A stretch of DNA of 64,000 nucleotides from Eledone cirrhosa (taxonomy: Eukaryota), in NCBI GenBank assembly GCA_964016885.1, contig CAXHJY010000212.1:99865-163864 (forward strand). Reading direction: 5' to 3'. This document shows positions 365-46,195 of the stretch, one piece after another. The translations under genes were made by a program, and so were the position numbers. The notes under the pieces were generated by a model. That model ran no database searches and was not told where the DNA came from. It was given only the letters and a program-made list of their open reading frames with translations. Each line of letters opens with the position of its first letter. Position 1 is the stretch's first letter.

Positions 365-451
365 GTTCAACTATCTGGCAGATGGGTAAACGGTGCTGAT
401 GATAGCTAACAAGCTTGAAACTAGTACATCGTTCCTGTGTCAGTGTTGAAC
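365..451 (+). ncRNA. Type I hammerhead ribozyme (first copy; one per monomer)
   Basis: Helix I: AACGGTG 389-395 with CATCGTT 427-433, extended by TGGG 383-386/CCTG 434-437, CTGGCA 375-380/TGTCAG 438-443 and GTTCAAC 365-371/GTTGAAC 445-451. Core CTGATGA 396-402; helix II AGCT-aaca-AGCT 404-415; GAAA 417-420; palindromic CTAG 421-424; GTA triplet with predicted cleavage after 426. Confidence 0.9.
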
Positions 452-612
452 AAAAAGGTGACGTGGTTGCCTTAACACCGTATGGCATAAATTCAGGCTG
501 TTCGCTTTGTTGACAAACAAACGAACAAAGCGGCCGGCGTTATAATAAACGTCGGCTAAACTGATGCGTGCATATATGTATGTGTACCTGTATGCATATG
601 TGTGTATATATG

Positions 613-649
<37 letters not shown>

Positions 650-1104
650 GCATGCTACTGTACGTCTGTATACATATATGTATGTACGTATACATACATA
701 CTTACATTTAAGTAAGTGCCATACTAAGAGTGAGAAATGAAATTTCGTTTTCATTTTTTTCAATTTATCGTTTTCGGTATGCCTGACCGATTTAACTCAC
801 TCAATATGCAAATTAGGCTGCTCAGCCGTTAATTTTCATAAGGAAAGTATATACTTTCGAACGTTCAACTATCTGGCAGATGGGTAAACGGTGCTGATGA
901 TAGCTAACAAGCTTGAAACTAGTACATCGTTCCTGTGTCAGTGTTGAACAAAAAGGTGACGTGGTTGCCTTAACACCGTATGGCATAAATTCAGGCTGTT
1001 CGCTTTGTTGACAAACAAACGAACAAAGCGGCCGGCGTTATAATAAACGTCGGCTAAACTGATGCGTGCATATATGTATGTGTACCTGTATGCATATGTG
1101 TGTA

Positions 1105-42172: not shown

Positions 42173-42301
42173 GTAGGTCCCGGGTTGAGTCGGGGATAAC
42201 TACAGTAAGTAAGGTACTCAATACATGGCAAAGTAAACATTTTTTATTTTATAGAAGGAGCTTCTACAGGACTAGTACTGTTTCATTCAGATGAAATCTT
42301 C

Positions 42302-42302: not shown

Positions 42303-43643
<1,341 letters not shown>

Positions 43644-46116: not shown

Positions 46117-46195
46117 CAGGCTAAAAATTCTAATTTAGTCCAGAAATAGCCGTCGAAACGGCTTGAGCTCTGCCGTCGGGTTCATACTTTTTCAT
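46117..46195 (+). mobile_element. Partial copy of foldback family B
   Basis: agtccagaaatagccgtcgaaacggcttgagctctgccgtcggg matches the right arms at 52348, 55193 and 58440. Confidence 0.75.

Follow-up and report, generated by a model that had tools for sequence, protein, structure and literature searches.

Type I hammerhead ribozymes of metazoans usually have a helix III of 1-2 bp with a palindromic loop and are active as dimers (PMC4209133). Discussion of dimer-favored hammerheads in tandem animal repeats goes back to 1988, and such hammerheads were tested in axolotl. There, HHR_Amex1, with a 1-bp helix III and a palindromic tetraloop, was reported to be 6% cleaved in 1 h as a monomer, and HHR_Amex2, with a U·U at the base of helix II, 22% in 1 h; dimeric constructs of both were described as "much more efficient" (PMC7229834). 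Reviews uphold the dimer model. Most invertebrate motifs are reported to have a stable helix III and to cleave as monomers (PMC7761336), and newt and salamander type I motifs can cleave singly with an internally looped extension of helix I (PMC6155905). GUA cleavage sites occur among natural hammerheads. In Schistosoma-type hammerheads, the U at position 1.7 has been proposed to contact loop 2, and an engineered hammerhead in which this residue was paired away turned over at half the rate (46 vs 97 nM/min; PMC11875169). Animal retrozymes have been argued to be non-autonomous Penelope-like derivatives (bioRxiv 10.64898/2026.07.22.740005). The Penelope-like insertion pattern is described as a tandem, an inverted copy, and a tail (bioRxiv 10.1101/2021.04.23.441226), the tail marking two internal starts of reverse transcription (PMC11167929).

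We analyzed a 64,000-nt window of the Eledone cirrhosa assembly GCA_964016885.1 (contig CAXHJY010000212.1, positions 99,865 to 163,864, forward strand), in which a tandem array of ~500-bp retrozyme units occupies window positions 1-41,191 on the plus strand. The units measure 498-538 bp on a 498-bp base period, and their differences in length sit in an internal (TA)n block; outside this block, 48 variants were called in ~44,000 sites. The array extends a further ~8.9 kb to the left of the window and contains 99 cleavage sites in all, 81 of them within the window, with an intact core pattern at 98 of the 99. In unit 37 (window ~10,450), A6 of the core is replaced by G, and judging from its letters the hammerhead of this unit is likely inactive. 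The array as a single rolling-circle product was rejected because variants recur in blocks of units: units 50-53 equal 66-69, units 70-77 appear again in 78-83, and units 62-63 equal 85-86. Such multi-unit duplications indicate that the length of the array reflects growth at the DNA level; an assembly artefact may also be a source of the duplicated blocks. Upstream of the array, contig positions 59,865-62,792 hold a LINE-type element with a 976-amino acid frame containing endonuclease and RVT_1 domains. At window 42,698-43,396, a 233-codon open frame resembles, by eye, the C-terminal part of a non-LTR retrotransposon protein.

Searching the 3.0-Gb genome with a core and helix II pattern returned 29,151 matches, against none in a reversed control, and both the U·U and CUAGU are kept in 25,824 of them. 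As in non-LTR retrozymes, the repeat is short, tandem, non-coding, and low in GC (units of 420-540 bp, GC 0.35), with one type I hammerhead per unit and a high copy number. At this length, the unit exceeds the 150-450 bp stated in PMC7229834 and falls within the 51-972 bp of bioRxiv 10.64898/2026.07.22.740005. Among the papers listed by our literature searches on octopus hammerheads and cephalopod retrozymes, none treated this family; supplementary lists may include it. Family-level comparisons used an alignment of 53 copies, made up of the window copy and 52 of the 64 distinct motifs from the first 65 pattern loci; 11 truncated or gapped motifs and one identical to the window copy were left out. 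Because the search patterns fixed the letters of the core and helix II, their invariance in the alignment is no evidence of conservation.

The hammerhead at window 365-451 is of type I, with the letters CUGANGA...GAAA...UH in order and helix I open. The core from C3 to A9 (CUGAUGA) lies at 396-402, with U at N7 where other subfamilies have C. Helix II (403-416) begins with U403·U416 at positions 10.1/11.1, followed by 4 bp of AGCU with AGCU (404-407 with 412-415) and the loop AACA; the alignment to the Rfam model HH9 offers a 6-nt loop, UAACAA, as an alternative. The remaining letters are GAAA from G12 to A15.1 (417-420), loop III CUAG (421-424), U16.1 (425), and A17 (426), all on the plus strand. 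Cleavage is predicted between 426 and 427, at a GUA rather than a GUC site owing to A426. The preliminary description of this locus had put every letter of the motif in its place, including the U-U at the base of helix II, and had overlooked the GUA site. Shifted registers of helix II that would avoid the U·U were rejected, as their sequences do not pair. The preliminary description had also rightly recognized that A-CUAG-U (420-425) is self-complementary; the palindrome can close a helix III of 1 bp within one copy or join two copies in a 6-bp duplex (-4.8 kcal/mol). The usual G10.1-C11.1 pair is absent from the family, where U·U or C·A stands instead, an exception known in the case of U·U from Amex2 (PMC7229834). 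A stricter pattern with a non-U at 10.1 gave 1,246 matches genome-wide; among the 100 listed, judged by eye, ~78 had C·A, mostly with a GUU site, none had G-C, and 90 kept CUAG. The window gave no match in an Rfam gathering-score scan, and an E-value scan was dominated by false matches to (TA)n. The HH9 match reached 18.5 bits against a cutoff of 52 (E 0.02); in its alignment, helix I has 6 bp and positions 10.1/11.1 are U/U. The 365-451 hairpin has a z-score of -2.96, with 2 of 500 dinucleotide shuffles folding as low.

Two side observations concern the surroundings of this motif. Both strands of helix II (within 404-415) read as the palindrome AGCU, so two copies can pair through helix II as well, and such pairing appears in the minimum-energy fold of two copies; in the double hammerhead modeled below, it could nucleate or compete with assembly. 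In addition, each unit carries an octamer at 308-315, which precedes the cut site by ~110 nt. An snRNA-type promoter has been reported for newt satellite 2 (PMC2220036); we claim none here because the conservation of the octamer (0.945, scored one base off, at 307-314) was equaled in 13 of 117 control windows.

Helix I is long and interrupted. Its 5' strand (365-395, plus strand) consists of 7 bp (365-371), a loop, 6 bp (375-380), a 2-nt bulge, 4 bp (383-386), loop 1, and a proximal 6 bp (390-395); its 3' strand spans 427-451, with U433 as position 1.7. The ~24 bp previously proposed for 365-395 with 427-451 can indeed form, as 17 outer pairs, 6 proximal pairs, and A389-U433, with two interruptions (372-374/444 and 381-382) beyond the single bulge that had been noted. 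That bulge, a TA at 387-388 seven pairs from the core, stands for the subfamily of the window and not for the family. The 5' side of loop 1 (387-389) reads UAA here and UAU in most of the family, and an A389-U433 pair is possible in the window's subfamily only, with a predicted probability of 0.44-0.55. As A389 is limited to this subfamily, the arrangement of 7 bp plus TA bulge is subfamily-specific. U433 is invariant in all 53 aligned copies, and at least 90% of them carry U in column 389 (genome-wide, U occurs there in 14,232 motifs and A in 8,541), which gives the family a helix I of 6 bp with a 3x1 UAU/U loop, as the HH9 alignment likewise draws it. Across the family, helix I runs from its outer end to the core through 7 bp, a 3x1 loop, 6 bp, a 2-nt bulge, 4 bp, the UAU/U (3x1) loop, and 6 bp. 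The letters expected for a loop 1-loop 2 contact, U1.7 and the loop-2 A, are conserved (at least 90% for the loop-2 As), and A389 may pair with U1.7 in the window's subfamily.

Pairing in helix I is kept in 95.7% of 1,484 cells across the 53 copies and in 94% of the proximal part, which has one two-sided pair. We counted 23 two-sided changes, where shuffles gave 10.8 and none of 500 reached the observed number; the changes fall in just 2 of 28 pairs, no excess over shuffles by that count (469 of 500 had at least as many), and the aligned copies are related to one another. At pair 393/429, we observed GU 25 times, UG 19, AU 5, CG once, and GC once. Helix I thus flanks the core with its pairing kept, whereas the letters of helix II were fixed by the pattern and provide no independent check.

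These features place the motif close to Amex1 and Amex2 (PMC7229834), with which it shares the type I fold, residence in high-copy tandem repeats, the 1-bp helix III with a palindromic tetraloop (Amex1), and the U·U (Amex2). It differs in joining both peculiarities in one motif, in its GUA (or GUU) site, in a unit of 420-540 rather than 330-350 bp, and in a helix I that extends to ~24 bp. With canonical metazoan type I motifs (PMC4209133, PMC11875169), it has in common a 6-bp helix I, a 4-bp helix II, a short helix III, a palindromic loop III, U1.7, and a loop 2 ending in A, but it lacks G10.1-C11.1, with U·U in the main subfamilies and C·A in ~78 of 100 listed others. Against the invertebrate pattern reported in PMC7761336, the motif looks amphibian-like. 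Newt satellite 2 and the cave-cricket repeat pDo500 (~500 bp) are likewise tandem satellites with an extended helix I and single and double modes (PMC6155905, PMC2837043); as described, however, pDo500 in its double form exchanges helices I and II while each copy retains its own helix III, whereas the model considered here shares helix III. The coexistence of a 1-bp helix III and a U·U was not found in the main texts of PMC7229834, PMC4209133, PMC3088659, and PMC2837043 or in reviews, the supplements of which may list it. Since its odd features match those of salamander motifs, the hammerhead is likely an unexceptional representative of an already known kind. The architecture had been called unusual, a description we do not find supported: metazoan type I motifs usually carry a palindromic loop on a helix III of 1-2 bp (PMC4209133), and the U·U has a precedent in Amex2. 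As first stated, that claim matters little. Both the architecture and the dimer inference are already in print, and what is new is the high-copy family, the combination of features, and the evidence from insertion ends.

Folding energies bear on whether one copy or two would be the active unit. For one copy alone, the predicted ground state is not a hammerhead: positions 393-398 pair with 422-427 (C396-G424, p 0.98), and the single active fold lies 8.5 kcal/mol above the free ensemble (ViennaRNA, window copy) because CUAG pairs with CUG of the core. Comparable core-blocking pairing has been described in viroid hammerheads (PMC1636495). Across 11 copies, the single active fold lies 7.7-12.9 kcal/mol above the free ensemble, with the core-blocking helix in 8 of the 11. 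When the second copy at 863-949 (plus strand) is included, two single heads lie at +19.2 kcal/mol and the double hammerhead at +3.2, a difference of ~16 in favor of the double form, which is a nested fold with swapped helix I and a 6-bp helix III. All 11 natural tandem pairs scored favor the double form, although in three of them even this form is >11 kcal/mol above the free ensemble. Nearest-neighbor energies omit the loop 1-loop 2 contact (which stabilizes the single head), other tertiary contacts, and kinetics. The locus therefore combines a palindromic loop III, a second copy in cis, and an accessible double fold as gauged by secondary-structure energies only. The motif is probably a functional, dimer-favored hammerhead in a non-LTR retrozyme.

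It is unlikely that a single extended hammerhead instead cuts adequately, its weak helix III being offset by contact between loops 1 and 2 and by the length of helix I, with the palindrome inherited rather than needed. The invariant U1.7 and the conserved loop-2 As would fit such a monomer, as would the newt and salamander motifs that cleave singly with a looped helix I extension and the 6-22% cleavage still seen for axolotl monomers. Helix I (-20.6 kcal/mol) would form ~500 nt ahead of its partner during transcription, which puts a kinetic barrier in the way of strand swapping. We saw no covariation in the loop III palindrome, with 6 palindromes among 19 double mutants where ~6.3 are expected, and no amplified alternative palindrome. 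Against a self-sufficient monomer stand the cost of the single active fold and its core-blocking helix, the conjunction of a 1-bp helix III, a U·U, and A17 in one motif, and the retention of CUAG in 90 of the 100 listed motifs with a non-U at 10.1.

The preliminary description had gone further, proposing that cleavage may need two adjacent copies and that the tandem arrangement is functionally required. Dimer-favored cutting is plausible from the axolotl precedent and the energies. The requirement for tandem arrangement was overstated in view of newt monomer cleavage, the 6 of 19 palindromic doubles, the DNA-level growth of the array, and the 55 of 100 first-listed motifs (on one contig, C1) that have no same-strand neighbor within 900 bp. 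Because lone copies may be dead insertions, these 55 do not refute a need for dimers in the source copies. A dimer would in any case need two copies, not 99.

A further reading, which we regard as unlikely, is that the hammerhead of this invertebrate retrozyme is detuned wherever it can be adjusted, through its 1-bp helix III, U·U or C·A in place of G-C, A or U at the cut site, lock between CUAG and the core, and, in the A389 subfamily, paired U1.7, and acts as a slow, dimer-only ribozyme whose cutting speed sets the number of units per insertion. A tandem neighbor was found for 73 of 100 listed A389 motifs vs 25 of 100 listed U389 motifs, and tandem runs among the first 100 listed of each amounted to 19 of 46 vs 9 of 84 (Fisher p = 1e-4). 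Age and the loss of exact matches confound this excess, so it serves as a hypothesis only.

Evidence on how the family spreads comes from the ends of its insertions. Mapped insertions end at unit position ~282 or ~341 (window 708 and 767), ~280 or ~340 nt downstream of the cut site and never at the cut site itself. Between these two fixed 3' ends lies a ~60-nt tail (window 708-767, plus strand), and the insertion ends nearly always join (TA)n. Among 20 wide regions, the 10 inverted insertions that could be scored each paired a short end with a long one, almost always within (TA)n, and an eleventh was unresolved. Opposite-strand neighbors are arranged 5'-to-5' in 8 of 8 adjacent pairs, and in 22 of 23 when two overlapping lists are taken. 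At the left end of the array, a short inverted piece lies ~210-280 bases upstream of the first core (contig position 91,178) and stops at the short 3' end within TA-rich sequence; on the right, the array breaks off at window 41,191 without a canonical end. Two fixed 3' ends, an inverted 5'-truncated copy, and an AT-rich or microsatellite target are the marks of Penelope-like insertion, and the tail likely represents two internal reverse-transcription start sites of Penelope type. Like Penelope-like elements and their derivatives, the family shows partial tandems, an inverted 5'-truncated copy, a tail at one end, and microsatellite or AT-rich targets; unlike the elements described so far in the sources cited, its tail is ~60 rather than 30-40 nt, it has no open reading frame, and its hammerhead is canonical rather than minimal. 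The insertion ends indicate that copying begins within the unit rather than at the site of ribozyme cleavage.

The same genome contains a young reverse transcriptase element with the same two ends, 56-64 nt apart (of 20 examined, 12 were long, 7 short, and 1 unscored). Its genomic copies are 96-98% identical with open frames of up to 1,261 amino acids, and it has a weak RVT_1 match and motifs, read by eye, that we take to be GIY-YIG-like. As for a partner element, no homology to the unit was detected at 40 loci of two reverse transcriptase families, other than nested copies and one 40-nt fragment. Several other pieces lie within the window. Inverted terminal pieces of the young RT/GIY-YIG-type element occupy 61,280-61,630, with their own type I hammerhead at 61,482 on the minus strand, one end being short and the other carrying a ~60-nt tail. 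At 49,680-49,760, two minimal hammerhead-like motifs stand back to back on opposite strands, an arrangement typical of inverted Penelope-like terminal repeats, and a related piece is found near 42,270-42,300. A short repeat family sits in (TA)n, often as inverted pairs, at 46,120-46,190, 52,290-52,480, 55,120-55,330, and 58,380-58,570.

The position of the ends also fits an account in which the hammerhead is barely active or dispensable, the repeat is propagated as uncut RNA by Penelope-like machinery and afterwards as satellite DNA, and the fold persists because the reverse transcriptase recognizes it or because the copies share a recent descent. Precedents come from the anole element PAc, for which hammerhead cleavage was dispensable for insertion in vitro and uncut RNA was the main substrate (PMC11167929), and from Xenopus, where one of nine retrozyme dimers was reported to cleave in vitro and eight did not (bioRxiv 10.64898/2026.07.22.740005). 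The multi-unit duplications inside the array point the same way, as does the capacity of the window's subfamily to pair away U1.7, given the halved turnover of the engineered hammerhead. RNA of the family was not seen in the runs examined: 18 of the 24 were RNA or presumed RNA, each with at most 6% of the words, and the four assembled gave nothing in three cases and a 31-nt piece in one. The other six, of unknown kind, did contain the words, and the four of these assembled yielded contigs, from which ends and strand cannot be read; by themselves, these runs have no bearing on expression either way. The pattern of variation speaks against this account. Subfamilies vary at tolerant sites (N7, loop II, N17, and helix I with its pairing kept) and spare loop III and U1.7, and an independent sequencing run showed variation of at least 5% inside the motif only at 372, 383, 389, 393, 400, and 410. 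We regard a barely active or dispensable hammerhead as quite unlikely. A chance fold in AT-rich satellite DNA, for which the missing Rfam gathering-score match and the low HH9 score might be cited, is highly improbable given the core letters all in order between helices I and II, the pairing kept across subfamilies, the low z-score of the hairpin, and the fitting retrozyme context.

Taken on the modeled energies and the insertion ends, the preferred reading, which we hold to be probable, is a type I hammerhead in a high-copy non-coding repeat of the non-LTR retrozyme kind that cuts poorly alone and better as two neighboring copies, with Penelope-like copying. A multimeric transcript would be made, in which a lone copy would stay mostly in an inactive fold with CUAG paired to CUG of the core. 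Two copies could then exchange helix I strands and form the 6-bp helix III, and cleavage after GUA would release monomers of ~500 nt. The predicted processed monomer runs from cut to cut over window 427-924 (498 nt, plus strand, folding prediction only); after two cuts, 427-451 is predicted to pair with 863-893 of the next unit, closing the monomer ends. The long outer helix I would thereby hold both ends for ligation into a circle, whose single hammerhead would remain mostly silent. A Penelope-like reverse transcriptase may copy the multimeric or circular RNA from the two internal start sites into (TA)n, and the window's array would later have been enlarged by DNA duplication.

For an invertebrate, the insertion ends lend direct structural support to the Penelope-like mobilization that has been proposed for retrozymes. 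Natural variants within the family, with U·U or C·A, GUA or GUU, and a paired or free U1.7, also make it possible to ask how weak a retrozyme hammerhead can be. If the detuned-hammerhead hypothesis is true, A389 and U389 would form a natural allelic series tying ribozyme rate to the birth of satellites via Penelope-type reverse transcription.
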